Shown here: positions 289 to 20,173 of the stretch, piece after piece
How positions within the stretch are numbered: the stretch's first letter is position 1
Layout: the number at the start of each line of letters is the position of its first letter
Assembly (NCBI GenBank): GCA_041397885.1
Contig: JAWKVV010000002.1
Location: 48,804-112,803, forward strand
Reading direction: 5' to 3'
DNA: 64,000 bases
Source: Alphaproteobacteria bacterium
GTDB lineage: Bacteria > Pseudomonadota > Alphaproteobacteria > Micavibrionales > Micavibrionaceae
The notes under the pieces: generated by a model
Told to the model about the DNA's origin: nothing
The model's database searches: none
Seen by the model: the letters and a program-made list of their open reading frames with translations, nothing else
Made by a program: the position numbers and the translations under genes

Positions 289-332
289 GCTATACTTAAT
301 GAGAAAGATACAAAGCGAAAGAGGGATATCAT

Positions 333-2734: not shown

Positions 2735-5188
2735 TTATCTTCTAAATGCGTTGATGAGTTCTTGAAACATTTCATCTGCCGCTGTTATAGCGCGGGCTGC
2801 TGCGGCGTATGCTGTTTGAACAACAATTAAATTTGACATTTCTTCATCAATGTTAACGCCTGAATCATCTGAAAATTGTCGCTGGACAATGCCGCGAAGC
2901 GTATCTTCATTTTCAAAAGCAGATTGTGCCTGTAAATAATCTTGTGATGTTTCATCAATCATTTTTTGAGCATAATCAATAAGATTAGATGAGCTGAAAA
3001 TACCTGTTGAAATGGCGGCATTCGGCCCTAAAAAATGGTTACGGATATTCGTAAAGGTTCCTGATCCGTTTGTAATTTCAAAGCTGTATCCTGCTGTTGA
3101 AATCGGCGATGTCTCTGTCACAGGTGGTCCTGCACTAAAGCTACCAAATAACGCACCGACAATGCTCACATTATCTGGGAAGCCATTGACGGCAGTATCT
3201 GTCGCGAAGGGCCCGCCTGTAATTCTGATATCGCCGCCAAATAAAGGTGCAGTATCTAAAGGCCCCCAGTTACTGTCATCTACCCCAGGGCGTAGAGTTA
3301 AGAATCCTGTGATGGCATCAATATCAACAAATAGGCCAGGCACACCTGTACCAGTCGTTGTGTTATATTCTAATTTAGCTTGCAACTCTACAAAGGTATC
3401 ACCAGGTTCAATGGTGATATTTACGGGAGTATCATTACCAATTTGAACATTAAAATTAGGATCTTCGGTTACGAAAGTGCCCTCGGCAATACCTAAAACA
3501 TCTAGCGCTGTTGTCCCCATTGCGTTGGCAAAACCTGTCCCCGCAATTGTTACGTTTCCACGGCTTTGAATGACGAGTTGTCCATAATTATTAGTAGTAG
3601 CCATGGCTTGATCTGGCGTTAAACCTGCCAAAGCAGCTTGAGAATTAATCTCGGCAATAATTTGATCTAGAGCATTATTGATACCTGGACCAATAGGAAA
3701 ATTTGCTTGTGCATTGCTCAAGTCCAAACTGATTGTTGTAGGACCAAAGCCAACTCCACGGACCTCTTCAAAAGTAATTTGAATTTCATCGTTTGCAGGA
3801 TATCCAGGGAAGGCACTTGAAACAGATTCAATTAAATCATTTGTACCTGCAATTCCGTCATCAATTTCAGAGAAAGATGAAAAATCAACACCCATAATAA
3901 CTTTGTTTGTTGAATATAATCCAAGCCATTCTTGTAAATCGACTGCTACACCTATATTGACCAAATCGGAAGATCCAATAGCTTCTTGGTAGTTAATATC
4001 TCCAAAGCCAAATTCTAAAACACGGCGAATAACTGAATTATCACCAGAAGGAAGAGTGATATCAGAATTATAAGTTCCTGATTGCAGGAGGGTGATATCG
4101 TTATCAATGTCTCGGTTAACACGAATTGTACGCGCAAAATCAACATAAGGAACAGGCGTTGGAAGTGGTAAAGTCGTTGGATCAGGCGCTGTTCCCAACG
4201 GAATACTGCCTGATTGATCTGTAAAAAGCGTTAACCCTTGGGCTTCAAAACGAAAGGCCATCTGATAGGCAAGTTCATCCAATTGGGCGTGATAGGAAGG
4301 GATAGTTTCATCACGTAAAGTCAATAACCCACCAATTTTTCCGCCAATGACACGGTCTGTGATATCTGTTCGGGTTTCGCGGCCATTGGCGATACTCACA
4401 ACAATAAGACCGCTCGCGCTGTTCGGATAGTATTGATTGGCAGATAGGGGAACAGATTCAAAATCTAGCCTATTCGCATAATCTCCTGCCAATTGCATTC
4501 CCTCTTTTGTCTGAACAACCAAAACGCCGTCGGATCTTTCAAAGAATGTAATGTCCATTTCTTCAGTTAAGGCCTTGATCGCGATATCACGTTCATCCTG
4601 AAGTCCTGCAACCGAATTATTAAAATTTTCTGCGCCGCGAATTTGGATATTAATATTGGTGATTTCTTCCAAAAGACTGTTTACTCTGTTGACCGAAGTT
4701 TGAAGATCCCCTTGTGTATCGTTTCTAAGCTGTGTCAAAAGGGCGGAATAATCATTAAACTTATCAGCCACAATATGCGCTTGGTCTAAAGTTGCTTGGA
4801 GAGCTTGCACGTCATCAGGAATATCAGATAAAGCACTGAAAGAATCGCGAAGTTGTGCAATTTTGGCAGCAATCGAAAATTCTTTTTCTGGGGGACCATT
4901 GAAATCCTGTATTTTTTGCAAATATTGAACCTGGACATCTTGCATGCTTGCGGCGCTGATCTGTGTCCATAAATCCCTTTGTAAATTCATATCCACAGTA
5001 CGAATAACAGCCCCTGTCAAAACACCGACGGTTTGACCGCTCTCACGCAAAAGTTGCGTTTCTTGTGGCAAAATTTGCCTGTTATAGCCTGGTGTTGTGG
5101 CATTGGTGACGTTGTTGGAGATCACACTCAGCTGTGCCTGAGCGGCGCGCAAACCTGTTATAGCTGTGTTAAGTGCTTGAAATGTCAT
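2735..5188 (-). CDS. flgK: Flagellar hook-associated protein 1 (FlgK), long form (~817 aa)
   Basis: N-terminus MTFQALNTAITGLRAAQAQLSVISNNVTNATTPGYNRQ and C-terminus EEMSNLIVVQTAYAAAARAITAADEMFQELI are classic FlgK rod/hook-family termini. I chose the ATG at 5188 (AGAGGAAAAG RBS) rather than the ORF-track start at 5224. Confidence 0.85.
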   Translation of the reverse strand: MTFQALNTAITGLRAAQAQLSVISNNVTNATTPGYNRQILPQETQLLRESGQTVGVLTGAVIRTVDMNLQRDLWTQISAASMQDVQVQYLQKIQDFNGPPEKEFSIAAKIAQLRDSFSALSDIPDDVQALQATLDQAHIVADKFNDYSALLTQLRNDTQGDLQTSVNRVNSLLEEITNINIQIRGAENFNNSVAGLQDERDIAIKALTEEMDITFFERSDGVLVVQTKEGMQLAGDYANRLDFESVPLSANQYYPNSASGLIVVSIANGRETRTDITDRVIGGKIGGLLTLRDETIPSYHAQLDELAYQMAFRFEAQGLTLFTDQSGSIPLGTAPDPTTLPLPTPVPYVDFARTIRVNRDIDNDITLLQSGTYNSDITLPSGDNSVIRRVLEFGFGDINYQEAIGSSDLVNIGVAVDLQEWLGLYSTNKVIMGVDFSSFSEIDDGIAGTNDLIESVSSAFPGYPANDEIQITFEEVRGVGFGPTTISLDLSNAQANFPIGPGINNALDQIIAEINSQAALAGLTPDQAMATTNNYGQLVIQSRGNVTIAGTGFANAMGTTALDVLGIAEGTFVTEDPNFNVQIGNDTPVNITIEPGDTFVELQAKLEYNTTTGTGVPGLFVDIDAITGFLTLRPGVDDSNWGPLDTAPLFGGDIRITGGPFATDTAVNGFPDNVSIVGALFGSFSAGPPVTETSPISTAGYSFEITNGSGTFTNIRNHFLGPNAAISTGIFSSSNLIDYAQKMIDETSQDYLQAQSAFENEDTLRGIVQRQFSDDSGVNIDEEMSNLIVVQTAYAAAARAITAADEMFQELINAFRR

Positions 5189-5263
5189 TCTTTTCCTCTT
5201 TTTGAGTGAACGATCAAAGGCCAAGAGACCTTAGGGCCGTTTTCCACAATCTAGGAATAGAAT

Positions 5264-5294: not shown

Positions 5295-6341
5295 TTATGG
5301 CAAAGTAACATCAGGTTCGCCTGCAGGACTGTTTAGAACAGGTGTTACTTCCCGAACGATCAGATCTTGCTGTTTATAGCGATCCTGAAGCGCTTTTAAG
5401 GCTGAAATAAGCATCATACGACGCTCAAGGGCTTCATGAATATCACGATCCTGCATCGTTTTAATGGCTTGCCCTGCGGCACGTATACGCTTTACATTTG
5501 CAGGCTTATCATACAAATTAATGATGAACTCAGGATTTTGGTAAATTTTCTTGGTGAGAATTTCCATTTGGGCGTAATAACTTGGGTTTTCGCCCATTAA
5601 TTCCTCTATATCCGCAGGCGCTGCGCCCATTTCCTGTAGAAGAGCTTTCATATAAGGTCCTGCACTTTCGGCTAAGGTATCAGGCCCTTCAGTCTTTTTG
5701 GCAATAATTTCAGCAAAGGCGTTTTGTGCAACCCCCCGAATGGCAATCAATGATCGCATATCCTGATAGGGCCCTACAAAACTATATAAAGTTGTTGTGT
5801 TAGCACTTTTCCACGGGAAGGCATCCTGCATGAAAATATAATCTAAGAAGGTAAAGAGATTTTCTTCTTCAGGCGTTACTTGATTATCTGTCAGATTCAA
5901 AGGAATGGTCAGCGGCATATCAATTGTTTGGGTATAATTGATATCGGCATTTTGTTGATTAGGAGCGCCACTTGACCCGCAAAGCTGTGCATTTTCTTTG
6001 CGGTTATCTTCTATGTCACAGAACGTGCTAATGTAGTTTCTTTTCTTGGTTTCTTGATCAGATCCTTCGTAAAATGTTTTTACATCTCCGCTTGCTAGAG
6101 CGCGATCTAACATAGAACGGGCAAGAGCTTCCTGTGTTAAGTCTGCGCGTCTTTGGGAATTTGTTAAGTTACGAACAAAAGTCCCAATTTCACACATTTG
6201 TTCAGAAGGATGATAGTCCTTATGTGCCTGCGCTGTTTTTTCTTGCATGAGGCGCTGGGTTTCTAATTGATGTTTGGCATCTAAAAATTCGCCGATCATT
6301 TCTATTTGGTGAATCATGAGTGTTGTTAACTGAACGGTCAT
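5295..6341 (-). CDS. Member P1 of the exported Cys-rich paralog family; N-terminally truncated, probably a decayed copy
   Basis: Carries the family core (IGEFLDAKHQLETQRLMQEKTAQAHKDYHPSEQMCEIGT ... NPSYYAQMEILTKKIYQNPEFIINLYDKPANV). It lacks a signal peptide and the Cys cluster. Family-like sequence continues upstream of the Met until a stop at about 6393 and then in another frame. Confidence 0.6.
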   Translation of the reverse strand: MTVQLTTLMIHQIEMIGEFLDAKHQLETQRLMQEKTAQAHKDYHPSEQMCEIGTFVRNLTNSQRRADLTQEALARSMLDRALASGDVKTFYEGSDQETKKRNYISTFCDIEDNRKENAQLCGSSGAPNQQNADINYTQTIDMPLTIPLNLTDNQVTPEEENLFTFLDYIFMQDAFPWKSANTTTLYSFVGPYQDMRSLIAIRGVAQNAFAEIIAKKTEGPDTLAESAGPYMKALLQEMGAAPADIEELMGENPSYYAQMEILTKKIYQNPEFIINLYDKPANVKRIRAAGQAIKTMQDRDIHEALERRMMLISALKALQDRYKQQDLIVREVTPVLNSPAGEPDVTLP

Positions 6342-6811
6342 TTGTTGTAATGCCGCAACCCAAATATATTTGATTTGGTCAGCTAGAGAATTGAATTATT
6401 CGTTCCAACTCCAGCGGAAGGTGTTGGCCCTGTCCAAGTGTAATTGGTCCTGGAGAGATTGTTCCTCCCCCTCCTGTGGAATAAGATTGAGGTACATTGA
6501 GCGTTAGGAACAGGTAACCCCCATGTTCACAAACATAAAATAAGGGCTTGTTGCACCATCATCGACATCACCACTTGACTGTGTTCCTGAAGCACTGTTC
6601 GCTAATGGTTTTACAAATAAACCCCCGCCCCCCAAGATGGGCTCCTCCAAAAGACCAGACCAAGTACAGGGCAGGAACGGTTGATTGACCATTACAGAAC
6701 TCTCCGTTCTCCCCAATTATAACCCTGAACCACATAACCACTATTGACCCTTGTGCGCGGCAGGACAGTTGTTCTGTAGATATGCAAGGTTTTTGAGAGT
6801 GAATTCATCCA

Positions 6812-7141
6812 TCATGGCTTCTTGCACCCCAGAACAGGCGTTTGTTGCCAATCCCTGATTAGAAACACCCACTGTTTACAACTTGCGGGGGCATTTTGAT
6901 AAGCATTAAGCCCTGAAGCTGTGGTTGGCATGAACTGATACATCCCTGTAGCACCAATACTATTGGCAATTGTGTAAGAACAGTTTGATTCTGTCTGACA
7001 GATAGAGTTTTTGTATTGGGTTAAATTACAGGTTCCGCCGCTTGGACCTGTTCCCGCGCCAGATCCACCAGTGGGCTGTGCGAATGCGAAAGAAGGTATA
7101 AATATAACAATGAATGATAATATTAAAAATAAACGCATCAT
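6812..7141 (-). CDS. Exported lytic-transglycosylase (SLT/VirB1-like) fragment, apparently truncated
   Basis: Signal peptide MMRLFLILSFIVIFIPSFAFA and a Gly-rich linker. CQTES...GATGMYQFMPTTA resembles the catalytic ES and GLMQxMPxTA motifs of SLT domains. At 109 aa it is too short for a full domain. Its start overlaps the upstream stop (ATGA). Confidence 0.4.
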   Translation of the reverse strand: MMRLFLILSFIVIFIPSFAFAQPTGGSGAGTGPSGGTCNLTQYKNSICQTESNCSYTIANSIGATGMYQFMPTTASGLNAYQNAPASCKQWVFLIRDWQQTPVLGCKKP

Positions 7142-7629
7142 AACGTCACCTGCCCTCTACCGTTATGGCAGATTGTTTTATGCGTCATATCGTTCTGTAT
7201 TTCTATACAATAGTTGGAAGAATTAGTTTGTTTTGCCATGCTGAGTTCAAGACGGCCAGCCCAATCCGCAGTAATGGGACGTATATTCATGGGGATGTCA
7301 GGATTTTTCAAAACAACAAGGGTGGATTTCTCTAATCCTGATAAAGCCACTTTAACATTTTGATTGGTGTTGACGACTTCAATATCAATGTAGCGTTCAT
7401 CATTATTTTTAATTTTATAAGTTACGATATAAGGTTCTACAAATTGTAGATTATCGTGATTGAATAAGGTTTCTTCATTTGCTTTCACCACTGTTGTAAA
7501 AGAGTGATCAATACCATGACCGTGGTAGTTTGTTTGAATTTCTGTTTTCTGATCAAAACTTGTAAATTTTTCTAGGTAATTGTTATTTTCATTTGGGGCA
7601 GAAAGTTTTTCTTCACGAATTAAAACCAT
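7138..7629 (-). CDS. Hypothetical protein in the paralog operon; may extend to an ATG at 7703 through a frameshift
   Basis: 163-aa ORF with no recognisable motif. A 27-codon ORF (7620-7703, MDKLKQYKRLIGGGFIVSFVLAIVLWF, good RBS) encodes a TM helix. It would join this ORF if one base were added to the T4 run at 7622-7625. Confidence 0.5.
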   Translation of the reverse strand: MVLIREEKLSAPNENNNYLEKFTSFDQKTEIQTNYHGHGIDHSFTTVVKANEETLFNHDNLQFVEPYIVTYKIKNNDERYIDIEVVNTNQNVKVALSGLEKSTLVVLKNPDIPMNIRPITADWAGRLELSMAKQTNSSNYCIEIQNDMTHKTICHNGRGQVTL

Positions 7630-7754
7630 AAAACAATAGCAAGAACAAAAGAGACGATGAAACCGCCACCAATTAATCTTTTATATTGTTTCAACTTATC
7701 CATTATACTTTTCCTAATTCAATGCGGGAATGCTGAGAAGAGGGTTTTGTGATT

Positions 7755-9074
7755 TCATACCTCTCTTCTGCTTCTTTCCGCTTCCTCAGCTTTAAGAAGG
7801 ATTGTATCCAAGTAACCACTAATAATTGCTTTCGTAATAACGGAATCTCTATAGGTATCGCGGCGCTGCATTAAATCAATCGCGCTTTGTGCTGCAATTT
7901 TGCGCTCCACGTTAACAGGCTTATCATATAGCTCTGTATAGTAATTGGGTGTCTGATACAGCGTCTTTGTTAGAAATTCCATTTGAGCGTCATAACTTGG
8001 GCGCGGACCGATAAGCTCTGCAATATCTGTTGTTGTCAGCCCCATATTTTCTAAATAAGCCTGAATATAGGGTTCAACTGTATCTGTTCCTTGTGACTTT
8101 CTACCGACTTGAGCAGCATAAGCGGAGAGCGTTAAGTTTTTATGTGCAACCAAGGATCGTATTTTCATGTAAGGGAACGCGCCTTTTGGGATAATTGTAC
8201 CGTTAGGGAGCGCCATTTTATCTTCTGGAATACGCGGAAGGACATCATTACCGTAAAGATTATTACTTAAGGCCAAAATATCTTCTTCATCAGGTGTGAC
8301 ATTATTCAAACTAAAATCAATTTCCAATGTTTGTTTCTGGTCAACGGTATTTGTATAGTTAATATCGCGGTTAATTTGCGTAGAGCCTGAACTGTTACAT
8401 ACGCGGGTCATTCCGTTTCCAAAATCAGCAGCATTACAGTATTTGTTTTTGAATTGGTCGAGACGGCTTCGCGTATAATCTCGCTGTCCTCCTGCAGAAA
8501 TAGAATCACCACTTAAGAGGTCTCTTTGCGTCCCATGAGATGAAATGGCAATTTGTGTAAGGGTTGCATTTCTATCTGAAGCAGCTAACGCTCTGGTGTT
8601 TGTTCCAAAGCGACACATTCCTTCGCTTGGTTGGTAATCTTTATGTGCTTGGGCTTGCAGTTCTTGCAGTATACGTTGGCTCTCTAATTGATGTTTTGCA
8701 TCAATTAATGTTCCCAAAATCATCATTTGTTGTGTCATAACGGCAGTCAGCTGCTCTGTCATAAACATCATGGCAGGAAGAAGATGTGCTTCCCAGAATA
8801 CTTTAATCAACCATTCACGCTGTTGAATGAATTCATCAGTAATATGTCGAATAGTAACAGTGGTTTCGGCATTCGATTGGCAAGCGCAAACATCTCTACT
8901 GCACTCTACTAGAGCATCTCTACATGTGGGGCAAGGACAGCAAATTGGCCCTCCAAATAAAGCTTCCGCTTTTCGTGGATTATTGAGTAGGGCATATGAA
9001 GAAAAACCTATTACCAAAGCAATGAGGCTTAGTATTTTTATATTTTTTGCTGTTTTAAATATAAATTTTTTCAT
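7755..9074 (-). CDS. Paralog family member P2 (439 aa), exported, Cys-rich
   Basis: N-terminal signal/anchor. Cys cluster ICCPCPTCRDALVECSRDVCAC. Core motifs LIDAKHQLESQRILQELQAQAHKDYQPSEGMCRFGT and RPSYDAQMEFLTKTLYQTPNYYTELYDKPVNV. Confidence 0.7.
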   Translation of the reverse strand: MKKFIFKTAKNIKILSLIALVIGFSSYALLNNPRKAEALFGGPICCPCPTCRDALVECSRDVCACQSNAETTVTIRHITDEFIQQREWLIKVFWEAHLLPAMMFMTEQLTAVMTQQMMILGTLIDAKHQLESQRILQELQAQAHKDYQPSEGMCRFGTNTRALAASDRNATLTQIAISSHGTQRDLLSGDSISAGGQRDYTRSRLDQFKNKYCNAADFGNGMTRVCNSSGSTQINRDINYTNTVDQKQTLEIDFSLNNVTPDEEDILALSNNLYGNDVLPRIPEDKMALPNGTIIPKGAFPYMKIRSLVAHKNLTLSAYAAQVGRKSQGTDTVEPYIQAYLENMGLTTTDIAELIGPRPSYDAQMEFLTKTLYQTPNYYTELYDKPVNVERKIAAQSAIDLMQRRDTYRDSVITKAIISGYLDTILLKAEEAERSRREV

Positions 9075-9079
9075 ATCCG

Positions 9080-10453
9080 TTATTTAATCTTATCGACCTC
9101 GTTTTTAACGCGCGTTTGTTCTTTTTGTAATGCAGTTTCCAACATCACTGCTAAAATCATTTCGTTTCTAAGGTAACTTAAATAAAGATCACGTTTTTGC
9201 ATGAGATTAACAGCAAGGGTGGCAATATATTTACGCATGATATTGCTCGGCGCTACATGCAAGTCGCTATAAAATTCTGGATTCTGATAAATCAGTTTAG
9301 TCAAAACTTCCATTTGGGCGTTGTAACTTGGATAATCACCAATGGCGTTTCTAATTTCTGCAACTGTCATGGCGCTACCACCCATTTCTCTCATCATCGC
9401 GTAAATGAACGGTTGCGCACCTTGATCGCCACTTGTTTTCAGAGCGACCTGGGCAGCAAGGCTATTGTGAAGAACACTACGTTTTGCAAGTAAAGCACGG
9501 ACATCTAAATAAGCAAGGGCCGCCGCATCATAATTGGGTGTGCCATCTGGATTAATGAATTTATTTGCTGAAACAAAGGGGAATAAGCGGTGTCCAAAAA
9601 GATTAGCGCTTAAAGCAATAACCGCTTCCTCATCATCCGTGGCGTTGGGTTGGTTCGCAGAAAAATCAATGTCCAGTGTCGCGGGAAGATCTATAGAGGA
9701 AGTATAGCTAATGTCTCTATTATATAAATCAGTTCTGTTTTGGCTTCTTGTACAAAGTAACGCTAAGTTTTGGTTATTATCGCCCGCGTTATCATTCTTG
9801 TTGCAATATTTAAACACAAATTGGATAAGGCGATTTTCCTCATCGCTTGTTATACCATAGTAAGAGGGCGTGTCCTCCGACAAAAGTTGGCGTTGAAGAG
9901 AGCGTTTAGATAAAACAGTAGAAGTTAATCTCGAATTTTCTTCTGAAGCAGCCAAAGAACGTGCCATTGTCCCAAACTCGCAGAGTTCCTGGTCTGGGTG
10001 ATAATCTTTTTGCGCACGCGCTCTTAATTGCTGGAACAAACGCTGAGTTTCTAATTGATGTTTGGCGTCAAAAAAAGCCCCAATGATTTGCACTTGCTGC
10101 ATTGAAGACGTTGTTAATTGCTCGGTCATCAGCTGCATCGCGGCGAGTAAGCCAGGGGGATCCCCGCTTGTGGCATCGCCAAAAAAAACTCGATCCATCC
10201 ACAGACGATGTTTTCTAAATTCTTCCGTAATATGACCAAGAGTAGTCGATGAATTGCTCGAGTTACCTGTTTCGGCATTCGATACACACAGACACAAATC
10301 TTGACATGTTGTCACTATATTATTGCAAACCTGTACGCAGTTAGAGTTAACAGGACACGTTGAGGGGTAACAGTTTCCTAGCTGCGCCAAACTTGACGGG
10401 CTAAAACAGGCAAGTGTCAAAAAGCATATAATTATAAATATTATTTTTTTCAT
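9080..10453 (-). CDS. Paralog family member P3 (457 aa), exported, Cys-rich
   Basis: Signal peptide MKKIIFIIICFLTLACFSPSSLA. Cys cluster CYPSTCPVNSNCVQVCNNIVTTCQDLCLC. Core FFDAKHQLETQRLFQQLRARAQKDYHPDQELCEFGT ... YPSYNAQMEVLTKLIYQNPEFYSDL. The start overlaps the P4 stop (TAATG). Confidence 0.7.
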   Translation of the reverse strand: MKKIIFIIICFLTLACFSPSSLAQLGNCYPSTCPVNSNCVQVCNNIVTTCQDLCLCVSNAETGNSSNSSTTLGHITEEFRKHRLWMDRVFFGDATSGDPPGLLAAMQLMTEQLTTSSMQQVQIIGAFFDAKHQLETQRLFQQLRARAQKDYHPDQELCEFGTMARSLAASEENSRLTSTVLSKRSLQRQLLSEDTPSYYGITSDEENRLIQFVFKYCNKNDNAGDNNQNLALLCTRSQNRTDLYNRDISYTSSIDLPATLDIDFSANQPNATDDEEAVIALSANLFGHRLFPFVSANKFINPDGTPNYDAAALAYLDVRALLAKRSVLHNSLAAQVALKTSGDQGAQPFIYAMMREMGGSAMTVAEIRNAIGDYPSYNAQMEVLTKLIYQNPEFYSDLHVAPSNIMRKYIATLAVNLMQKRDLYLSYLRNEMILAVMLETALQKEQTRVKNEVDKIK

Positions 10454-12354
10454 TATTGATCTCCCTCACTTTCAAGAGAGATAAGTTGGGCTTCTATACG
10501 GTCAAACTCACCTCTTAGCATTTCTTCCCCGATACTTGCGAAAACACTTTCTATTTGAAGTTGATTTTCAAACATGTCTCTTTCTTGCATAGAGCGAATA
10601 GCGGCAAGCGCAACTTGTTTCCTTAAAACATTGGCGGGTTTATCGTAAAGCTCTGTGTAAAATACAGGATTTTGATAAATGCTTTTTGTTAAAACTTCCA
10701 TTTGTGCGAAATAACTGGGGTTTTGCCCTAAAAAGATATCCATATCTGCCTGAGGAACACCTAAATCAGCAACCAATCTTTTAAGATATTGCGCAGATTC
10801 TGGATCGCCTTTGGCGCGGTCCGCAACAATCGCTGAGAAAGCGTTTTGGGCAACATTTCGTTTAGCGGCAAGAGACCTTAAATCCAGATATCTATAAGCC
10901 ATTGTGTAAGGGAAACCGTTGTTATCTGCCAACAGATCGCCAGAAATACTATCTAAAGGAATATGACCGAATAAATTAGAAGTGAGGGCAAAAATATCTT
11001 CTTCATCAGGAGTTCCAGTCGCGGCAGAAGCCCCTGTAAAATCAATATCCAAGGTCAATTTGGATTCTAGAGTATTTGTAAAATCAACATCTTTATTATA
11101 GCGCGCCGCATTGGTTCCCCCTCGTGAACATAAGTGATTCAAGCCATTGGAATTGTCTGCAGGATTACAGTAATTGGTAATAAACGAAGCCATTCGGCCT
11201 TTAACATCCGCATCCTCACCGCTTCCCGCAGCCGTATCGCCGTTACGCAAACTGCGTGCTAAAAGTTGGCTAGAAAACGTCGCATGCGCCATTTTGCTTT
11301 TTTGAGTGGAGGCCGCCAAAGATCTTACATTTGTGCCAATATCGCAAATTCCTTCACTAGGTTGATAATCTTTGTGTGCTTCGGCCATCAATTGTTGGAA
11401 TAAACGCTGCGTTTCCAGTTGATGTTTTGCATCAAAAAATGTTCCGATAATGAATGCTTGTTGCATCATCATAGTGTTGAGCTGCGCTGTCATCAGGGCC
11501 ATAGCGGGTAGAATTTGTTTGACAAAAAACTCGTCAATAAGCCATGTGCGGTGAGTAATAAAACTATCCGTCATGCGCGCGCGAATCGTGCCGTGATTAT
11601 TTTCAATCGTGGGACGGCAAGTAGAACAGTTACAAACAGGGGTACAGCTTTTGCTCACAGGTCCTCTGTTGTGAACAGCAGGAAAAATTTCATAAGAACC
11701 GCTTGGTCCAGCAGATCCTGCGAGAATGCCACCACCACCGCCAAAAAGACCATTTAAGAAACTGCTTAAATTTAAAACCCCGCTTAAAAGATTAACAAGA
11801 GAAGCAGGAAGAGCTGACATAACAGCATTCATGATTGCCTGAGGACTTAAGTTTTGTAGTGCCTGTGCCGTTGCCATTAATCCTGTTATGGTTCCTATGG
11901 CTTGCTGTAATTGCGCAGGAGCTAGATTTTGTAGCTGAGCAAGTAACTGAGGGTTTTGAAAAATCTGGCTAAGATTGTTGATGTTGGTGAGTTGTCCTAA
12001 TTGCTGAAATGTCGATAGTGTTTGTGCAATGTTGGGGGGTAAATTTTGCTGAATAACATTGTTAACCAGGTTTCCTGCAGCAGCTTGGGCGGCCTGGGGT
12101 AGCTGCTGAATATTTTGTAAAATTTGTTGTGCGCTAGCAATTGGAATATTAGCTTGCTGACTAAAATTTGTAGCGGCCTGATTGAGATTAAGATTACCAC
12201 TTAAAAGCCCTTGGACAAGCTGTTGTCCTGAAAGATTTGCCGTGGGATTGCCTGTAGGATTTGGCTGTGTTTGTTGTGCTTTGGTACTCATAGGAACCAA
12301 AACCAGACAACACATTAAAATGAGGATTTTTTTCATGCTTCTTATTTTCCTCAT
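10453..12354 (-). CDS. Paralog family member P4 (633 aa): signal peptide, one Gln-rich module, Gly linker, Cys cluster, core
   Basis: Core FFDAKHQLETQRLFQQLMAEAHKDYQPSEGICDIGT ... NPSYFAQMEVLTKSIYQNPVFYTELYDKPANV. The N-terminal Q/N/A/L-rich module resembles those of P5. The ATG overlaps the P5 stop (ATGA); an alternative ATG is at 12336. Confidence 0.7.
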   Translation of the reverse strand: MRKIRSMKKILILMCCLVLVPMSTKAQQTQPNPTGNPTANLSGQQLVQGLLSGNLNLNQAATNFSQQANIPIASAQQILQNIQQLPQAAQAAAGNLVNNVIQQNLPPNIAQTLSTFQQLGQLTNINNLSQIFQNPQLLAQLQNLAPAQLQQAIGTITGLMATAQALQNLSPQAIMNAVMSALPASLVNLLSGVLNLSSFLNGLFGGGGGILAGSAGPSGSYEIFPAVHNRGPVSKSCTPVCNCSTCRPTIENNHGTIRARMTDSFITHRTWLIDEFFVKQILPAMALMTAQLNTMMMQQAFIIGTFFDAKHQLETQRLFQQLMAEAHKDYQPSEGICDIGTNVRSLAASTQKSKMAHATFSSQLLARSLRNGDTAAGSGEDADVKGRMASFITNYCNPADNSNGLNHLCSRGGTNAARYNKDVDFTNTLESKLTLDIDFTGASAATGTPDEEDIFALTSNLFGHIPLDSISGDLLADNNGFPYTMAYRYLDLRSLAAKRNVAQNAFSAIVADRAKGDPESAQYLKRLVADLGVPQADMDIFLGQNPSYFAQMEVLTKSIYQNPVFYTELYDKPANVLRKQVALAAIRSMQERDMFENQLQIESVFASIGEEMLRGEFDRIEAQLISLESEGDQ

Positions 12355-14684
12355 TTTACGTTTCTCAAATCATTATATATGCGTTGATGCTCTTTTTGAC
12401 TCATGACAGAAATGAGTGTTGCCAAAATAGCATTACTTCTTTCGATGCTGTCATAAATGTCACGATCTTGCATATTACCTATTCCCTCAAGAATGGCGGC
12501 CATACGTTCATTATTAACAGGCTTATCAATTAGATTTGTGTAGAAGTTAGGATCTTGATAAAGAATTTTTGTTAAAACTTCCATCTGCGCAAAATAACTG
12601 GGGTTAGTTCCTAGACGGTCATTAATGTCCGTGGGGTTGATGCCTGTTTCTGCCAATATTGCTTTAAGGAAAGGAGCAGCTTCGCTATCTCCTTCTGCTT
12701 TTAGGGCAGTAATCGCCGCAAAACTATTTTGGGCAACGCTACGTTTTGCTGCGATAGCGCGTATTTCTTGATAATAATTTGCGTTGTCTTTTGCAGGATT
12801 AGTGCCAGGAGGACCTGTGTTAGGATAAGTCATTAAGTCACCTGAGATGGAAGGCAGAACCTCGTTCGCAAATAAATAGCTACTTAACATGAAAACATTT
12901 TCTTCATCATCTGTCGCAGGCGGCGCAGATCCACCTTGAGTAAAATCAAGCTCAAGTGTAAGTTTGTTTTCAATGGAATTTGTATAGTCGATATCCATGT
13001 TAACTTGGTTAGGATTTGCACTTCCATTTTGACAAAGTTGCTGCAAACCACCTGCATGATCATCCATGTTACAATATTTATTGATGAAAAGAGCAAGGCG
13101 ACTTTCGCGGTCTGATTTTTCACCTTCTAAAGACAAAGCATCTCCGCTTAACAATTGTCGATCCATCATTCTGTTGGCCAAGGCAGCCTGTGTTAGATCA
13201 GATCTACGCTCCGATGTGACAAGGGAGCGTGTACCCGTTCCAATTTTACAAATCTCTTCGCTGGGGTGATAATCTTTATGGGCCTGTGCTGTTAATGTTT
13301 GGAACAGTCTCTGTGTTTCCAACTGATGTTTGGCATCAAAAAATGTTCCAATGATTTGAATTTTCTGAATACCCGTTGCGGTGAGTTCGGATGCCATGAG
13401 TCCTAGAGCAGGGGCAATTTTGTCCATGAAAAAATTATTCACAAACCAGTTACGATATTGTTCAAATTCTGCCGTTACGTGGGCGCGAATAATCTGGTGG
13501 TTTCGCTGAATAAAAGGCGCACAATTCTGACAGGCAGGAGCACAGTTAGGCGTGCAAGAACTACCACCAGTCGAAGGAGCTCCTGGGGCTCCTCCTAGCA
13601 ATGATCCGATAAGCCCTGCAACAGCGGCTTGTCCCCCTAAAGCGCTAACAAGACCAGGAGCTACGGACTGTAGTGTGGAGGCAATGGCGTTAGAAATAGC
13701 GGTTTGTGCTGCGGCCAGAGCAGCGGCAGGCAAGTTTTGAATATTGGAGACTAGGTTCGTTATTGTTCCGATTGCTTGCAAAGCTTGTTGTGGGTTCATC
13801 CCGTTTAAAGCCGAAAGAATGTTTTGATTTTGAAATAGGGAGGCAATAGCTTGAGGACTCGTTAACTGTCCAAGTTGTTGTACTGTTGATAATGCTTGCG
13901 CAATACTAGGCGGTAAATTTTGCTGTATGACCGAAGTCACTAAATTTCCTGCTGCTGCTTGAGCAGCGGCAGGTAAGTTTTGAATATTTGATAAAATTTG
14001 TTGTGCGCTTGCGATTGGAATATTGGCTTGCTGTGCAAGGGAGGTTGCGGCTTGGTTAATATTTAACCCCCCAGTGAGAACACTCTGTACAAGTTGATTG
14101 CCAGAAAAAGTAGAGGCGAATGAAGTAAGAAGATTTTGTGATAAATTCGCGGTTACAGCATTCAGTAGAGTTTGAGGGTTTATATTTTGTAAGGCTTGAG
14201 CTGTGCTCACTAGTCCCGTGACCGTGCTGATTGTTTGTTGAAGCTGTGCGGGGACAAGACTTTGTAGTTGTGAAACAAGTTGCGGGTTTTGAAATACCGC
14301 ACCAATGCTACCAGCATTCGCCAACTGCCCTAAAGTATTAAGCGTCGATAGAGTTTGCGCAACATTGGGAGGCAGGGTTTGTTGTATAACAGAATTAACC
14401 AAGTTTCCTGCCGCGGTTTGAGCTGTTTGAGGTAGATTTTGGACATTTTGTAGAATTTGCTGTGCGCTCGCAAGGGGGATATTGGCCTGTTGACTGAAGG
14501 TCGTTGCGGCTTGGTTTAAGGTGGTTGACCCATTCAGTAAATTTGTGACAATTTGCGTTCCCGCGCTTGGCGGTGTTGGTGTTTGCGCTTGAGCGTTCAC
14601 AGGGGTGATAACGCAGAAAAATATTAAAAGAATTATAAAAATTCTTTTAATATCAATATGTTGATACAAATTTACAATTTTCAT
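12351..14684 (-). CDS. Paralog family member P5 (777 aa): signal peptide, two Gln-rich modules, Gly linker, Cys cluster, core
   Basis: Signal peptide ...IFFCVITPVNA/QAQ. Tandem ~154-aa modules. Cys cluster CTPNCAPACQNCAP. Core FFDAKHQLETQRLFQTLTAQAHKDYHPSEEICKIGT ... NPSYFAQMEVLTKILYQDPNFYTNLIDKPVN. First gene of the operon, divergent from icmL. Confidence 0.7.
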   Translation of the reverse strand: MKIVNLYQHIDIKRIFIILLIFFCVITPVNAQAQTPTPPSAGTQIVTNLLNGSTTLNQAATTFSQQANIPLASAQQILQNVQNLPQTAQTAAGNLVNSVIQQTLPPNVAQTLSTLNTLGQLANAGSIGAVFQNPQLVSQLQSLVPAQLQQTISTVTGLVSTAQALQNINPQTLLNAVTANLSQNLLTSFASTFSGNQLVQSVLTGGLNINQAATSLAQQANIPIASAQQILSNIQNLPAAAQAAAGNLVTSVIQQNLPPSIAQALSTVQQLGQLTSPQAIASLFQNQNILSALNGMNPQQALQAIGTITNLVSNIQNLPAAALAAAQTAISNAIASTLQSVAPGLVSALGGQAAVAGLIGSLLGGAPGAPSTGGSSCTPNCAPACQNCAPFIQRNHQIIRAHVTAEFEQYRNWFVNNFFMDKIAPALGLMASELTATGIQKIQIIGTFFDAKHQLETQRLFQTLTAQAHKDYHPSEEICKIGTGTRSLVTSERRSDLTQAALANRMMDRQLLSGDALSLEGEKSDRESRLALFINKYCNMDDHAGGLQQLCQNGSANPNQVNMDIDYTNSIENKLTLELDFTQGGSAPPATDDEENVFMLSSYLFANEVLPSISGDLMTYPNTGPPGTNPAKDNANYYQEIRAIAAKRSVAQNSFAAITALKAEGDSEAAPFLKAILAETGINPTDINDRLGTNPSYFAQMEVLTKILYQDPNFYTNLIDKPVNNERMAAILEGIGNMQDRDIYDSIERSNAILATLISVMSQKEHQRIYNDLRNVK
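13650..14561 (-). repeat. In-frame tandem duplication (2 x ~154 codons) of a Gln/Asn/Ala/Leu-rich module inside P5
   Basis: aa 42-195 and 196-345 align. Example: QAATTFSQQANIPLASAQQILQNVQNLPQTAQTAAGNLVNSVIQQTLPPNVAQTLST versus QAATSLAQQANIPIASAQQILSNIQNLPAAAQAAAGNLVTSVIQQNLPPSIAQALST. One further copy lies in P4 (about 11755-12228). Confidence 0.75.
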
Positions 14685-14930
14685 ATTGTCTATTTTTGCC
14701 CCTAAAATAGCGCTTTAGCCATAAAATGAAACTCACTTCTAGAATTTTATCATACTCTAACACCAAAACGCACGAATCAAAAAATATGTCTTAAATTTGG
14801 GGTAGGATGTTTAAATTTGCGCTTTATCCCTTGCTTGTGGTCGAATGTTGATAGAAAGTAGTTTTTACAAAAGATTTTTGATAAAAATATAAGGCATTAT
14901 TAACTCAATTAACATTATTTCATCAAAATT

Positions 14931-15668
14931 ATGACAGAACAACAACAGGACAAAATCGCTAATCCACGACAATCACGGCCGGCGCCGCGTTCTCCAGTGC
15001 GTGGCGGAAGTCAAAAAGTCGTCCAAACGAAGTCTGATGCCGAAAGTACAAGCGGTTTAGGGAATGTTGTTTTGCGTAACGAGTACTACCGTGATGGGTA
15101 TCGCTTAGCGCTGAGAGTGTCTGTGATTCAAAGCTTTATTATTGTTGGCCTGATTGGGGCGATGTTTTTTGTCATTAAGGTCCATCAACCAGAAAACCGT
15201 TATTTTGCAACCACGGAAGATGGGAGATTGATTCCTATGGTGGCGCTTAGCCAGCCGAATTTAAGTAATCCTGCCTTGATGTCGTGGGTGGCTCAGGCCG
15301 CAACGGAAACGATGACATTTGGTTTCAGTGATTATCGCCGCCGTCTGCAAGAATCTTCCAGAAACTTTACGAAACGGGGATGGGAGAGCTTTACGAATGC
15401 GCTTCAAAGTGCCCGTATTATCGAATCGATCGAATCAAATGCGCAAGTTATTACGGCTGCGCCAAGGGGGGCTCCTGTATTACAGTCTGAAGGGGTTGTA
15501 AACGGCCAATATCAATGGATTGTTCAAATTCCGATGGTGCTGTCTTATCAATCAGGGTCATTGACACGTTCGGAAAACTGGCTTGTGACGCTGGTTGTTG
15601 TTCGTGTTCCGCGTCTGGAAAGCCCCAACGGTGTTGGGATAGCACAGTGGATTGCAGTTAAAGGTTAA
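14931..15668 (+). CDS. icmL: IcmL/DotI (TraM-like) T4BSS inner-membrane protein
   Basis: 245 aa with one TM helix, then LSNPALMSWVAQAATETMTFGFSDYRRRLQESSRNFTKRGWESF ... WLVTLVVVRVP, typical of the IcmL/DotI family. Followed by icmK-icmE-icmG. Confidence 0.7.
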   Translation: MTEQQQDKIANPRQSRPAPRSPVRGGSQKVVQTKSDAESTSGLGNVVLRNEYYRDGYRLALRVSVIQSFIIVGLIGAMFFVIKVHQPENRYFATTEDGRLIPMVALSQPNLSNPALMSWVAQAATETMTFGFSDYRRRLQESSRNFTKRGWESFTNALQSARIIESIESNAQVITAAPRGAPVLQSEGVVNGQYQWIVQIPMVLSYQSGSLTRSENWLVTLVVVRVPRLESPNGVGIAQWIAVKG

Positions 15669-15679
15669 GTATTCAAAGA

Positions 15680-16825
15680 ATGATTGTAAAAGACATGAGT
15701 AAATTACTGTCACAAGGATTCAGGGTTTTCACGCTGTCGGCTCTGGCATTGTCGTGCTATGGGATAGCTCCTGCTCTGGCGCAAAATGAGTTGAGTTTGG
15801 ATGATTTTCTAAAAGAAAATGAAGCGTTGATGGAAACGCCATCAAAAAAGAAAAAAGAAAGCCCAATCGCCCTTGAAACTGGGAAAAGCAAGGATGGAAG
15901 CGCATTACCAGATGTGGCTGAAACACGGCTGAGTGTAGAAGATACAGGTATGGACGCTGATCAGTCTGGTCTAAGAATGTCTGTTGATGAACTTGGTGTT
16001 ATACAACAATCCGAAGAAGAGTTGGCAGAAGAAATTCGTCAGGAAGCTTTTGATGCAGCAATCACTGGATTGTTTCCTTTGCGCCCAGAAAATATCAGAC
16101 AGCTTTTGCGTGAATATGATACAACAAGACGGGCCGCTGAAGAGCCTATCAATGGGATTCCCACGCCTGAGGTAAAAGTTGAAACAATTTCTTTAGATCC
16201 TGGTGTTGCGCCAATGGTTTTAAAAACGGCAACTGGGCATATCACAACGTTGAATATTTTAGATGCAACAGGTGCGCCGTGGCCTATTCAGGATGTGGGT
16301 TGGGCAGGTGATTTCGAAGTGGTTGAGCCAGAGGAAGGTAGTCACATTATTCGCATTACCCCTATGTCGATCGCAGCCTACGGAAATATGTCGATTCGTC
16401 TATTGGAGCTTCAAACACCTGTAACCATTTCACTTTCTACGAGCAAAGATGAGGTTCAGTATCGCGTGGATGCGCGTATTCCGCAGCTTGGTCCTTTTGC
16501 GCAGGCACAGTTAATTGATGGAGGAAGTGAGCGTGTAGCAGGCGATTCAACCTTGATGGCTGTTTTGGATGGTGTGCCGCCAAATGGTGCAACAAAGTTG
16601 GAAGTTAGCGGTGTTGATGGCCGCACAACTGCATATAGTTTGAATAATAAAACATATGTTCGTACACCTTTGACTTTGCTTTCACCAGGATGGGATCAAT
16701 CTGTTTCTTCAGCAGATGGAATGAATGTTTATACCTTGAATGAGACCCCTGTTTTGCTTTTATCGGACAATGGCAGATTTGCCCGTGCTAATTTGACAAT
16801 CGGAAAGGATTTGCTCGATGAGTGA
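15680..16825 (+). CDS. icmK: IcmK/DotH (TraN-like) T4BSS outer-membrane core protein
   Basis: 381 aa with a signal peptide. The conserved C-terminal half (TGHITTLNILDATGAPWPIQDVGWAGDFEV ... VQYRVDARIP) and its position between icmL and icmE support the call. Confidence 0.65.
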   Translation: MIVKDMSKLLSQGFRVFTLSALALSCYGIAPALAQNELSLDDFLKENEALMETPSKKKKESPIALETGKSKDGSALPDVAETRLSVEDTGMDADQSGLRMSVDELGVIQQSEEELAEEIRQEAFDAAITGLFPLRPENIRQLLREYDTTRRAAEEPINGIPTPEVKVETISLDPGVAPMVLKTATGHITTLNILDATGAPWPIQDVGWAGDFEVVEPEEGSHIIRITPMSIAAYGNMSIRLLELQTPVTISLSTSKDEVQYRVDARIPQLGPFAQAQLIDGGSERVAGDSTLMAVLDGVPPNGATKLEVSGVDGRTTAYSLNNKTYVRTPLTLLSPGWDQSVSSADGMNVYTLNETPVLLLSDNGRFARANLTIGKDLLDE

Positions 16826-18191
16826 TGATGACATCGAAAATGATTTTGATACCGATGATTTCGATGATGGCGGTTTTGATGATTTAAATAGTCAAAAAGG
16901 CTCTCTTGGTGATTTATGGCGCAATAACCCTATTGTTAAAATCGGGATTATCGCCTTTGGCGTTATATTTCTTCTTGGGGGAATATTCTTATTTGGCGGT
17001 GAAGTTGATACTTTGCCTGAATCACAAATTTCACCAGTGCAAGATGTTACAGAAGCACCAGGTAAGGCTGAGATTTCAGAAACAATGAGACAGGCCGTTG
17101 AGGAAGAAACGGTCAGACGAACGGAAGAAGCTGTGCGAGGTCAGGGCAGTGCAATGCCAACACCTATTGATCCACCAAAAGGGGTTATTGGATTGCAGTT
17201 TGAAGAAGAAGAGGAGGAAGATCCTCTAGAACGTTGGCGCCGAATGCAGCAAGAAAGAATTGCACAGCAACAAATACAGGCGCCGAAAGTTGAACCGCAA
17301 GTTCCTGAACCTCCTCCTGTTGACACCAGAACACCTGCTATTAATGCGATGTCACAAGCGATGTCACAACAAATGGCAACCATTTTAGATGCTCAGGATT
17401 TTAATGGTCCGATTGTGAAGCAAGTGAGTGGTATTGATTACCTCGATATTTTGGCAGAAAAAGAGCAGGAAAAATTGGCCAAAAAACTAGAAATGGCCGC
17501 CGTGGCAGAGCAGCAGATTACAAATAGCGATGGTAATCAGGATTTAAATATTATTGTGCCTGCAGGTACAATTGAATATGCACAAATGATTACCGAGGCG
17601 AATACAGATGCGCCTGGACCTATATTGGCGCAAATTGTTTCAGGCCCGTTAAAGGGGGGTCGCATGATTGGTACGTTCCAGTCAACGGATCACTATTTGA
17701 CTTTAAATTTTAACACCGTTGTTTTGGATGGTATTGATTTTGCTGCTGAAGGGATTGCAATTGACCCTAACACCACTTTACCAGGAGTGGTGACAGATAT
17801 TGACAGACGTTACTTTACGAGGGTTTTGTTGCCTGCGGCGGCAGAATTTATTGAAGGTTTTACAGAAGCTATTGCTGATTCAGGGACAACAACAATCACC
17901 ATTAACGGGACATCAACAACGACAACGACATCTAACGCGAACACAACAAATGATCAAGAAGTGGCTTCGGGGATTGAAAAGGCAGGGGAAGAGATTGGTG
18001 AAATCTTAGGAAAAATCGCAGATGACACTAAACCTTTGCTGCGTGTAAGAGCAGGGACCCCTATAGGCATATTGTTTATATCACCTGTTGTGGGGACACC
18101 GCAGTTGTTGCAAAAACAAGAAGAGGAAGCGTTTGAGCGTGAGCGCGTTCTACAGCAACTTTCATCCCCCTTTAACTATCAACAACAGTAA
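16818..18191 (+). CDS. icmE: IcmE/DotG (TraO-like), short form with VirB10/TrbI-like C-terminal domain
   Basis: 457 aa: acidic N-terminus, one TM, a Pro/Gln-rich linker, then IIVPAGTIEYAQMITEANTDAPGPILAQIVSGPLKGGRMIGTF (VirB10/TrbI-like). The start overlaps the icmK stop by 8 nt. Confidence 0.65.
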   Translation: MSDDDIENDFDTDDFDDGGFDDLNSQKGSLGDLWRNNPIVKIGIIAFGVIFLLGGIFLFGGEVDTLPESQISPVQDVTEAPGKAEISETMRQAVEEETVRRTEEAVRGQGSAMPTPIDPPKGVIGLQFEEEEEEDPLERWRRMQQERIAQQQIQAPKVEPQVPEPPPVDTRTPAINAMSQAMSQQMATILDAQDFNGPIVKQVSGIDYLDILAEKEQEKLAKKLEMAAVAEQQITNSDGNQDLNIIVPAGTIEYAQMITEANTDAPGPILAQIVSGPLKGGRMIGTFQSTDHYLTLNFNTVVLDGIDFAAEGIAIDPNTTLPGVVTDIDRRYFTRVLLPAAAEFIEGFTEAIADSGTTTITINGTSTTTTTSNANTTNDQEVASGIEKAGEEIGEILGKIADDTKPLLRVRAGTPIGILFISPVVGTPQLLQKQEEEAFERERVLQQLSSPFNYQQQ

Positions 18192-18205
18192 TTTTAAGGA
18201 TAGAA

Positions 18206-19486
18206 ATGCAAAATCCAGAAGATGAAGAGATTGGCTTTGATGAAGAATTAATGGATGATTCTTATGATGCTGAATTTGATGATCAGTATGATGATTTTGG
18301 CGATGTTGAAGAAGGAGAGTGGGCGGAAGACCCCTATGAAGAAGAATTTGGTGATGCTGAGCCACTACCCCAAGAACAAAAAAAGAAAGCGGGCTTAAGT
18401 TTTAATACTATTGTCATTGGTGGCGCCGTTGTTTTGGGTTTGGGCGTTTTTGGATATCAGTTGATGACAACCAAACCCGTGAGTACTGGAACCAAATTTG
18501 CATCTGCTCTTAATATGAGCGGGGCAACAGACGGGCCCATTTTTGGTCAAGGTGAAGACCAAGGTCAAGACGCTGCGACAATAGAGCAGAAAAAATTATC
18601 TGAGCAGGAAGAAAAAAATAAAAGCGGATTTTTATTTGATCCAGAAGTTTTAGATTCTGTTGAGGGGGGCGAAGATTTGCCTATGCCCTCTGCTATTTCT
18701 CAAGTGTCAGAAGGTCAAGAAGATAAAGATGAAATTATTATCGACGACATTGAAGAGATGGGAACTAAAACAAGTCCCGAGTTTGTCGCGGCGGTGGAAC
18801 CCCCTGTAACACAAGCTCCTGTTTTGGAACAGCCAATGGAGCAAGTGGACACAAACGATTCAAAAGCAGATGAAATTATTATTGAAGAGGAAGAGGTTTC
18901 GGAGCCTTCTCTTTCTTTGCAACAAAGTCTTCAAGTTGAGGAAACCTCAAAAGAGGAGGCTGCCCCCGTTGTAGAAGAAATGGTTATAACAACGCCACAG
19001 CCTGATACGAAGACTGAAACTGTCAGTATAGGCGCGACCCCTGCTTTATCAGCGGCGGATATGACAACAATTGAAAAGAAACTAGATATGATTGTAAGCC
19101 GTCTTGATCGCGTTGAATCGCAAATGGCTGAAGTTAAAGAGGCCAATAATTCAGAAGTTGATACGATTTCTAAAAGCGTCAAAGATTTGAAAAAAGAGGT
19201 GGCTAATCTAGCTATAACAAAACCAGCCGCACCAGTGAAAACAGTTAAGAAAGCTGATCCTGCTCCCAAAGTGGCAACTTCCAAACCCTCTTCATCGAAT
19301 AGTAAAGTGACATGGGAACTGCGCGCGGCGCAGCCTGGCAAGGCTTGGGTCTCTAAAGCAGGGCAGAAAGAACTGACCCCTGTTACAGTGGGGGATGATC
19401 TGTCTGGTATTGGTCGTATTACGAGTATTACTTATGTTTCAAATCGGTGGATTGTGCAGGGGACTTCAGGGAAAATTACTCAATAA
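18206..19486 (+). CDS. icmG: IcmG/DotF (TraP-like) T4BSS protein, extended form
   Basis: 426 aa: very acidic N-terminus, single TM (FNTIVIGGAVVLGLGVFGY), an acidic/coiled-coil region, and C-terminal WELRAAQPGKAWVSKAGQKELTPVTVGDDLSGIGRITSI...WIVQGTSGKI as in DotF. Position is after icmE. Confidence 0.5.
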   Translation: MQNPEDEEIGFDEELMDDSYDAEFDDQYDDFGDVEEGEWAEDPYEEEFGDAEPLPQEQKKKAGLSFNTIVIGGAVVLGLGVFGYQLMTTKPVSTGTKFASALNMSGATDGPIFGQGEDQGQDAATIEQKKLSEQEEKNKSGFLFDPEVLDSVEGGEDLPMPSAISQVSEGQEDKDEIIIDDIEEMGTKTSPEFVAAVEPPVTQAPVLEQPMEQVDTNDSKADEIIIEEEEVSEPSLSLQQSLQVEETSKEEAAPVVEEMVITTPQPDTKTETVSIGATPALSAADMTTIEKKLDMIVSRLDRVESQMAEVKEANNSEVDTISKSVKDLKKEVANLAITKPAAPVKTVKKADPAPKVATSKPSSSNSKVTWELRAAQPGKAWVSKAGQKELTPVTVGDDLSGIGRITSITYVSNRWIVQGTSGKITQ

Positions 19487-20168: not shown

Positions 20169-20173
20169 TCCGT

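Follow-up and report, generated by a model that had tools for sequence, protein, structure and literature searches.

Tandem paralogues in the Dot/Icm-like locus of Micavibrio-type bacteria: probable divergent equivalents of IcmX/TraW, one of them fused to a predicted lytic transglycosylase

IcmX belongs to Legionella's type IVB secretion system (T4BSS), known as Dot/Icm, and is termed 'IcmX_B5' in the unified nomenclature of type IV secretion systems (T4SSs). It has been described as a pentameric, VirB5-like protein of 466 amino acids (aa) with a signal peptide and with N- and C-terminal helices around a loop-rich extended domain (PMC12501162), and even between Legionella species no other Dot/Icm protein is so poorly conserved (PMC6761968). 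Together with DotA, IcmX was recently shown to form the gate and extendable channel of Dot/Icm. The IcmX counterpart in I-type conjugation is TraW, encoded by the IncI plasmid R64. The closest precedent for tandem copies of a VirB5-type tip subunit within one T4SS locus is the Trw system of Bartonella, with multiple copies of trwJ (VirB5) and trwL (VirB2) that are proposed to diversify target-cell contact (PMC12857230). Here we describe five tandem minus-strand genes (5295-14684) in a 64,000-nucleotide (nt) stretch of a Micavibrionaceae genome (contig JAWKVV010000002.1, positions 48,804 to 112,803; hereafter the window). These genes lie beside Dot/Icm-like genes and probably encode very divergent IcmX/TraW ('B5') equivalents, which are likely to be distant homologues and have been duplicated into three ancient types.

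The five open reading frames (ORFs), designated P1 to P5, encode proteins of 777, 633, 457, 439 and 348 aa as called. An earlier note, made from the sequence alone, had placed five tandem paralogues at coordinates and sizes that are exact in the ORF listing of the window. In a MAFFT alignment of the five copies, identity to P1 ranges from 37 to 48%, a similarity far above chance level, and 66 columns are invariant. These columns include DAKHQLETQRL, AHKDY.PSE..C, YCN, PSY.AQME.LTK and YQ.P, and they contain the near-invariant core blocks that had been picked out by eye. Each copy shares the same core, preceded by a cluster of 4-7 Cys; three further Cys are conserved within the core itself. P3 (9080-10453) is the minimal form, consisting of a signal peptide, a 7-Cys cluster and the core, and P4 (7755-9074; 439 aa as called and 453 aa in the near-identical contig L005) is also minimal. 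P2 (10453-12354) carries a Gln-rich module (aa ~37-229; nt 11668-12246) between its signal peptide and the Cys cluster and core. P1 (12351-14684) has two such helical modules in tandem (aa ~36-206 and ~191-387), followed by a 4-Cys cluster and a core of ~400 aa. The P1 modules repeat that of P2 (58% and 51% identity); the modules, each of ~170-200 aa, have a Gln content of 15-18%, against 6% in P3; their presence in two of the copies had likewise been seen before. No Pfam or PHROGs match was obtained for them (11668-12246 and 13524-14579, minus strand), and a fibre, an adhesin or a spacer can be named as possible roles.

The genes are tightly packed, as the earlier note had reported: the P1 stop and P2 start overlap by 4 nt (12351-12354), P2 and P3 overlap by 1 nt (10453), and P3 and P4 are separated by 5 nt (9075-9079). 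The P1 start (14684) lies 246 bp from icmL (14931). The intervening region (14685-14930) presumably holds the promoters of both divergent operons; these promoters are inferred, since a scan for consensus promoters and terminators gave nothing above shuffle expectation. All full-length copies begin with a signal-peptide-like segment (a K/R-rich n-region, a hydrophobic core and an A-x-A-like site), and by a heuristic call such a segment is found in 283 of the 286 complete family members across relatives. It is therefore likely, from these N-termini, that the proteins are exported.

The family had been called unrecognised, and it remains so in curated profile libraries: with all copies scanned, the core has no Pfam or NCBIfam match at E <= 1 and no PHROGs match. 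A tblastn search of 72,556 plasmids with P3 also returned nothing at E <= 1. Relatives are nevertheless numerous, if nameless. A word-indexed search found 597, none with an assigned name, and an exhaustive profile search found 1,257 representatives at 50% identity clustering (792 with E <= 1e-30), many of which have long N-terminal extensions (the matches listed being the best 150). Scanning one genome per GTDB species gave 73 loci, all from Micavibrio-type organisms and including the complete genome of the cultured M. aeruginosavorus HCB189. NCBI places Micavibrio under Pseudobdellovibrionaceae, which accounts for some of the genome labels.

The array is embedded among Dot/Icm-like genes. On the plus strand of the window, icmL/dotI, icmK/dotH, icmE/dotG, icmG/dotF, a gene for a DUF6750 small membrane protein, icmJ/dotN and icmB/dotO extend from 14931 to 24065. 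The products include DotI/IcmL (1.7e-66), DotH/IcmK (7.5e-82), a TrbI-like DotG, IcmJ/DotN (2e-29) and a recognisable IcmG/DotF, and IcmB shares 27% identity with R64 TraU across 918 aa (E 9e-103). A survey of the loci by ORFs and hidden Markov models revealed a conserved layout: icmB...icmG-icmE-icmK-icmL share one strand; the opposite strand carries the array followed by flgK-flgL; and beyond flgL, back on the icmL strand, come p279-icmT-dotB-dotC-dotD (p279 encoding an exported protein that is 279 aa long in the window). The array lies inside a Dot/Icm-type gene cluster, as an IcmX/TraW gene does, with icmL adjacent in 57 of the 59 loci with enough flank and dotB, dotC, dotD and icmT on the other side; the exceptions are L062 (see below) and L075, in which glmS/glmU stand in place of icmL. 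This co-occurrence upholds the link to a Dot/Icm-like machine drawn in the earlier note, which had not weighed an equally tight linkage to flgK-flgL: flgK adjoins the array in 56 of 57 loci with enough flank. In L029 and L034 rsmB takes the place of flgK, and the array stays with icmL. In M. aeruginosavorus HCB189 (L081; NZ_CP195303.1, 2008239-2029258) and across L010-L082, the syntenic icmB, G, E, K, L, icmT and dotB, C, D genes are chromosomal. They form a complete-looking Dot/Icm-like set with housekeeping genes on its flanks; neither a relaxase nor a coupling protein can be seen within these loci.

The structure of P3 was predicted with AlphaFold2 from a 62-sequence alignment (predicted local distance difference test [pLDDT] score of 77.8). 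The predicted fold is all-alpha: the N- and C-termini form long helices on either side of a loop-rich middle. When compared by Foldseek with 350,542 PDB chains, its top match was chain AP1 (417 residues) of 9NGY (E = 2.6e-3, probability 1.00, 233 columns), the next match having E = 1.0. This entry is the in-situ Legionella DotA-IcmX protochannel, and chain AP1 was taken as IcmX from its length. A P5 orthologue was modelled from a different alignment, and the IcmX chain again ranked first (E = 3.4e-2, probability 0.99, 262 columns), followed by lytic transglycosylases that matched its N-terminal domain. The two modelled proteins are separate paralogues: P5 forms its own positional orthologue group, and the core of the window's P5 is ~46% identical to P1. 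VirB5, TraC and TrwJ had no entry among the PDB fold matches at E <= 10 with either model.

Comparison with TraW gave a second, fainter correspondence. Alignment of the family by hhalign with the single R64 TraW sequence (E = 0.0064) sets ETQRL...A[HQ]KDY.P..C of the family against ETQRL..ARKSF.VP..C of TraW, and [YF]C[ND]...[LV]C against [YW]C[TD]...GGT..C. The three conserved Cys of the family and of TraW coincide, with spacings of 59 and then 13-17 residues in both. The same pattern recurs in a near-global, collinear suboptimal alignment of the profiles (family 1-437, TraW 2-381). This agreement of motifs is suggestive only.

Taken together, the T4BSS linkage, the top fold match obtained with two models and the lack of any other IcmX/TraW candidate within the ~35-kb locus make an IcmX/TraW-type subunit the most economical reading. 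Among the roles that the earlier note had considered, an IcmX/TraW-like protein is thereby favoured, with the collinear three-Cys alignment to TraW added to the fold matches and with sequence profiles falling short of significance. The minimal copies (401-470 aa) are within the size of IcmX/TraW, about 400-470 aa, and a DsbG-like disulfide isomerase gene beside dotD fits Cys-rich periplasmic parts. By sequence the family is outside all curated families; by modelled fold and genomic context, it is best placed with IcmX/TraW. Like Legionella IcmX, its members have a Sec signal peptide, a length of ~450 aa and a place in a Dot/Icm-type locus; their modelled layout, too, is all-alpha, a middle part rich in loops and containing Cys being framed by long helices at the N- and C-termini. 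Unlike IcmX, they have no significant sequence similarity to it, occur as two to five paralogues rather than one gene, carry N-terminal add-ons (lytic transglycosylase, Gln-rich repeats, lipase, M23) and are not beside dotA, icmV or icmW; in addition, their hosts prey on bacteria, whereas Legionella is an intracellular pathogen of eukaryotes. R64 TraW is similar in size (400 aa) and has an N-terminal export signal, and in the collinear alignments its ETQRL and three Cys coincide with those of the family. It differs in that hhalign probabilities are 1-6%, its Pfam model marks no listed family member, and traW is a single gene located after traU/traV and before traX/traY, whereas the family's array is divergent from icmL.

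Several results weigh against this assignment. The fold matches to IcmX are weak (TM-scores of 0.18-0.29, root-mean-square deviations of 9-12 A, E-values of 1e-2 to 1e-3), and all-alpha proteins are prone to spurious fold matches; given the low TM-scores, the match is best called reproducible but weak. Three family profiles run against PDB sequences returned no match, to IcmX or otherwise, nor did profile searches of the core in Pfam and NCBIfam give a significant match, and in the precomputed annotation the TraW model PF28212 marks none of the listed relatives. Against a 15-sequence TraW profile, hhalign gave a probability of 1.1%, with its top alignment on a different region, and for this reason hhalign is not counted as support. 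The Cys/ETQRL pattern was spotted post hoc in alignments with E-values of 0.0064 and 0.22. The partner in the profile-profile comparisons was TraW, IcmX having been compared by structure. No DotA homologue was found in the ~35-kb locus, although canonical icmX/dotA genes may lie elsewhere in the genome. The linkage to flgK-flgL is as tight as that to icmL, and L062 (metagenome-assembled genome [MAG] SJ137, JADLAT010000021.1) is alone in having three copies and flgKL enclosed by housekeeping genes, for MltA upstream and for an M16 peptidase downstream, the surrounding ~8 kb being free of T4BSS genes. Finally, both copies of the cultured M. aeruginosavorus are bare cores without Cys cluster or enzyme domain, so that neither of these is essential to the family. 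The failure of sequence profiles is to be expected, as IcmX is poorly conserved even within Legionella. When the TraW profile was run against the PDB as a control, Legionella IcmX was missed; these sequence tools thus cannot bridge even an accepted pair.

The copies are old and have subfunctionalised into fixed positional orthologue groups. Among genomes with five copies, the best match in another genome falls on the same position in 544 of 552 comparisons for P3, 548 of 552 for P4 and 551 of 552 for P5; for P1, 500 of 552 fall on position 1, and P1 and P2 are mutual closest relatives. The number of copies between the icmL and flgK boundaries is two (1 locus), three (24), four (5) or five (18). 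In three-copy genomes the copies correspond to the P1/P2, P3/P4 and P5 types. Three types of ancient origin are distinguished: one resembling P1 and P2, whose N-terminal add-ons vary; a minimal one resembling P3 and P4; and one resembling P5, with an N-terminal lytic transglycosylase. The five-fold expansion noticed earlier is real in the window, whose clade has five fixed positional orthologues, and it is specific to that clade rather than general. With the number varying from two to five, a heteropentamer built of one of each paralogue is ruled out as a general rule. In Bartonella, by comparison, the Trw system is of type IVA, and its copies are reportedly recent, sequence-variable duplicates (a finding attributed to Seubert et al. 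2003), unlike the old, positionally fixed copies with different add-ons seen here.

The fifth gene required correction. It had been read as a truncated copy (5295-6341) together with a separate SLT-like gene (6812-7141); these are the two ends of one broken fusion gene, P5 (5295-7141, minus strand). When the window was searched by tblastn with an intact P5 orthologue, homology ran upstream past the called ATG to ~6395 and was picked up again, in a different frame, at 6899-7138, where the 'SLT-like' ORF has its N-terminus. In related contigs a single protein of 608-655 aa occupies the position after the small gene that follows P4, and an intact P5 of 622 aa is encoded by L005 and L007, independent metagenome contigs with 98% identity to the window. 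Relative to these, the window has ~16 deletions of 1-4 nt at 6396-6872, a position at which a third assembly (L004) has 100 N. The affected kilobase contains ~20 indel events versus 42 substitutions, and most other 500-bp bins are gapless (the 7500-8000 bin has 2 gap columns). From this ratio and the near-gapless surroundings, the breakage is more likely to stem from a local error in the consensus than from true decay of the gene, and the public MAG annotation R3D88_03840 (348 aa) is then likely to be wrong here. Two further 1-nt deletions are seen in the vicinity: owing to one near 7763, P4 (453 aa in L005) has an altered and shortened C-terminus, and the small gene has lost its N-terminus through one near 7634. 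P5 thus comprises a signal peptide and lysozyme-like domain, of which 6812-7141 encodes the signal peptide and the catalytic E-S...G.YQF motif, the indel stretch (6396-6872) and the core (5295-6395). Given homology across 5295-7141 and the intact relatives, the operon reads P1-P2-P3-P4-small gene-P5, with P5 a fusion protein.

The N-terminal domain of P5 is predicted to be a lytic transglycosylase of the lysozyme-like type, and its catalytic Glu is invariant. In 68 orthologues the extension shows no variation in its E-S and G.YQF motifs, with E49, S50, G66 and Q69 invariant or nearly so, and the domain is modelled at a pLDDT of 95-98. Its Pfam SLT score, 20.0 bits, is just under the cut-off of 21.3. 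Foldseek against the PDB retrieved Slt, phiKZ gp144 and Rpf, all with E > 1; against BFVD, it retrieved phage SLT/GEWL, tail-lysozyme and gp5/Vgr-type proteins (E ~1e-3 to 1e-2). VirB1-type T4SS lytic transglycosylases resemble this domain in their SLT/GEWL-like fold and catalytic Glu, but VirB1 is a separate protein, unlike the P5 fusion. The tip lysozymes of phage T4 (gp5) and of type VI secretion systems (T6SSs; evolved VgrG) are comparable in that an enzyme is covalently joined to a tip or axis subunit, here a putative one. A literature search turned up no report of a VirB5/IcmX-type subunit fused to a lytic transglycosylase, and none is known to us.

Extensions are not restricted to P5. 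Across loci, the last copy of the array almost always has an N-terminal extension of 125-235 aa, and extensions of 180-600 aa are frequent in the first copy or the first two. A Pfam scan of 115 such extensions yielded almost nothing besides the transglycosylase matches, a GDSL lipase domain in a single family member (1e-9) and an M23 peptidase in another single member (7e-5). This variable and enzymatic character speaks for a first alternative, in which the family would consist of predation factors exported by Sec: adhesins, toxins or enzymes that degrade the envelope, sharing a helical carrier or scaffold domain. They would be co-regulated with the T4BSS without being parts of the machine. 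Their site of action would be the junction between predator and prey, reached either by release through a different route or through a T4SS in two steps, as with pertussis toxin. Signal peptides on all copies, an expansion and length range (400-1,080 aa) typical of effector-like families and the weakness of the IcmX match are all in keeping with this. Strict positional orthology and a strongly conserved core of ~400 aa across the order suit a machine part better than a rapidly evolving effector, however; the minimal copies (P3, P4 and both of those in M. aeruginosavorus) have no enzymatic domain, and the best fold match was twice a T4BSS structural subunit. We consider such predation factors unlikely.

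A little less likely still is a hitherto undescribed accessory or scaffold (a ring, a collar or an assembly factor with a wall-cutting enzyme) that serves the Micavibrio T4BSS in the periplasm, is unrelated to IcmX and resembles it by convergent helical packing. The T4BSS linkage would be equally strong for such a protein, and both the low TM-scores and the non-significant sequence support for IcmX/TraW speak for it. It would leave the locus without an IcmX/TraW-type component, however, and would explain neither the emergence of IcmX as the single outstanding PDB match for two models nor the collinear match of the three conserved Cys of TraW.

The least probable alternative is that the array encodes periplasmic flagellar assembly proteins co-transcribed with flgK-flgL, with a SltF/FlgJ-like P5 enzyme for passage of the rod through the wall: flgK (2735-5224) and flgL (1574-2704) do follow P5 on the same strand, with flgK 70 nt downstream of it, the copy bearing the transglycosylase is the one beside flgK, and L062 retains the array and flgKL without T4BSS neighbours, but the main flagellar cluster of M. 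aeruginosavorus (GMV1700-1727), including an FlgJ-like gene, is elsewhere with only flgK here, neither P5 nor the core has a Rod-binding or other flagellar match in Pfam or NCBIfam, L029 and L034 have icmL and no downstream flgK, the M. aeruginosavorus copies have no transglycosylase, hook-junction structures appeared in the fold search at E ~3-5 versus 2.6e-3 for IcmX, and flgKL is the odd one out in the locus because T4BSS genes flank it on both sides. In M. aeruginosavorus ARL-13, the array-side FlgK is the only FlgK listed and is far from the main flagellar cluster. For the presence of flgK and flgL inside a T4BSS locus, shared polar or attack-phase regulation is one possibility.

If the proteins are IcmX/TraW-type subunits, they would be the T4BSS component of that type, diverged past sequence recognition. 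Each copy by itself, or several in mixed oligomers, would be built into the periplasmic or distal end of the T4BSS channel; by analogy with Legionella, they would sit on the machine axis. Their N-terminal modules (peptidoglycan-cutting, Gln-rich helical and occasionally lipase or M23) would then be displayed at the tip, facing the outer membrane or the target cell. With its lytic transglycosylase, P5 could cut a passage through the predator's own wall so that the machine can assemble, break through the envelope of the prey in epibiotic attack, or do both. Its fusion to the core suggests a specialised injection tip for attacking other bacteria. Doubtful, though worth stating, is the fuller picture of a Micavibrio-type T4BSS aimed at bacterial prey whose IcmX-like cap is a mixed oligomer of three to five specialised subunits, some of them bearing an envelope-breaching enzyme (lytic transglycosylase, lipase or M23) or a Gln-rich fibre at the N-terminus. 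Were this true, the armed cap would be the T4SS counterpart of enzyme-tipped phage-tail and T6SS spikes and the first modular 'armed tip' for type IV systems.

Micavibrio are obligate predators of Gram-negative bacteria, including Pseudomonas aeruginosa. The loci described here indicate a conserved type IVB system for the whole Micavibrio order, and should that system serve predation, it would count as a T4BSS directed at bacteria and would be open to testing in a species that can be cultivated and has only two family copies. Fixed, specialised paralogues and a peptidoglycan-cutting fusion would also constitute a natural experiment on tip function, and more than 1,200 'hypothetical' protein clusters would gain a working annotation. 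The 2011 genome paper on M. aeruginosavorus reported no evidence of type IV secretion (PMC3189940). A literature search, of incomplete coverage and so compatible with an earlier description, found no later paper linking Micavibrio to a T4BSS. The fixed paralogue multiplication, the lytic-transglycosylase fusion and the conserved Dot/Icm-like system across Micavibrio-type predators all appear to be undescribed so far.

The small conserved gene between P4 and P5 (7138-7629, minus strand) is called with 163 aa; its length in L004, L005 and L007 is 188 aa. It had no family match in the library scan, and its orthologue in L001 has a hydrophobic helix at the N-terminus. At the left end of the window, the other T4BSS arm (19-1565, plus strand) consists of the 3' end of dotB (19-288), icmT (333-632) and the gene for the 279-aa exported, Pro-rich protein (726-1565). 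This last gene lies between flgL and icmT in nearly all loci, and its product varies from 242 to 677 aa; it had no family match in the scans, and precomputed annotation gives a faint hint of an STN domain. In relatives, dotC, dotD, a standalone SLT gene and the DsbG-like gene lie further to the left. Upstream of dotD in L007 (3723-6201) are genes for the DsbG-like thiol:disulfide interchange protein (1.6e-36), a 347-aa protein and a standalone SLT transglycosylase of 139 aa. The DsbG-like and SLT genes could plausibly assist Cys-rich parts of the T4BSS in the periplasm and its passage through the wall.

At the other end of the cluster, the region after icmB (24058-27633) contains a 173-aa ORF and, on the opposite strand, a UbiH-like FAD monooxygenase gene, an odd insertion amid T4BSS genes. 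It is followed by a gene for a 362-aa protein, the C-terminal half of which matches IncI TraQ (8e-11) and DUF6750, and then by a 206-aa ORF.

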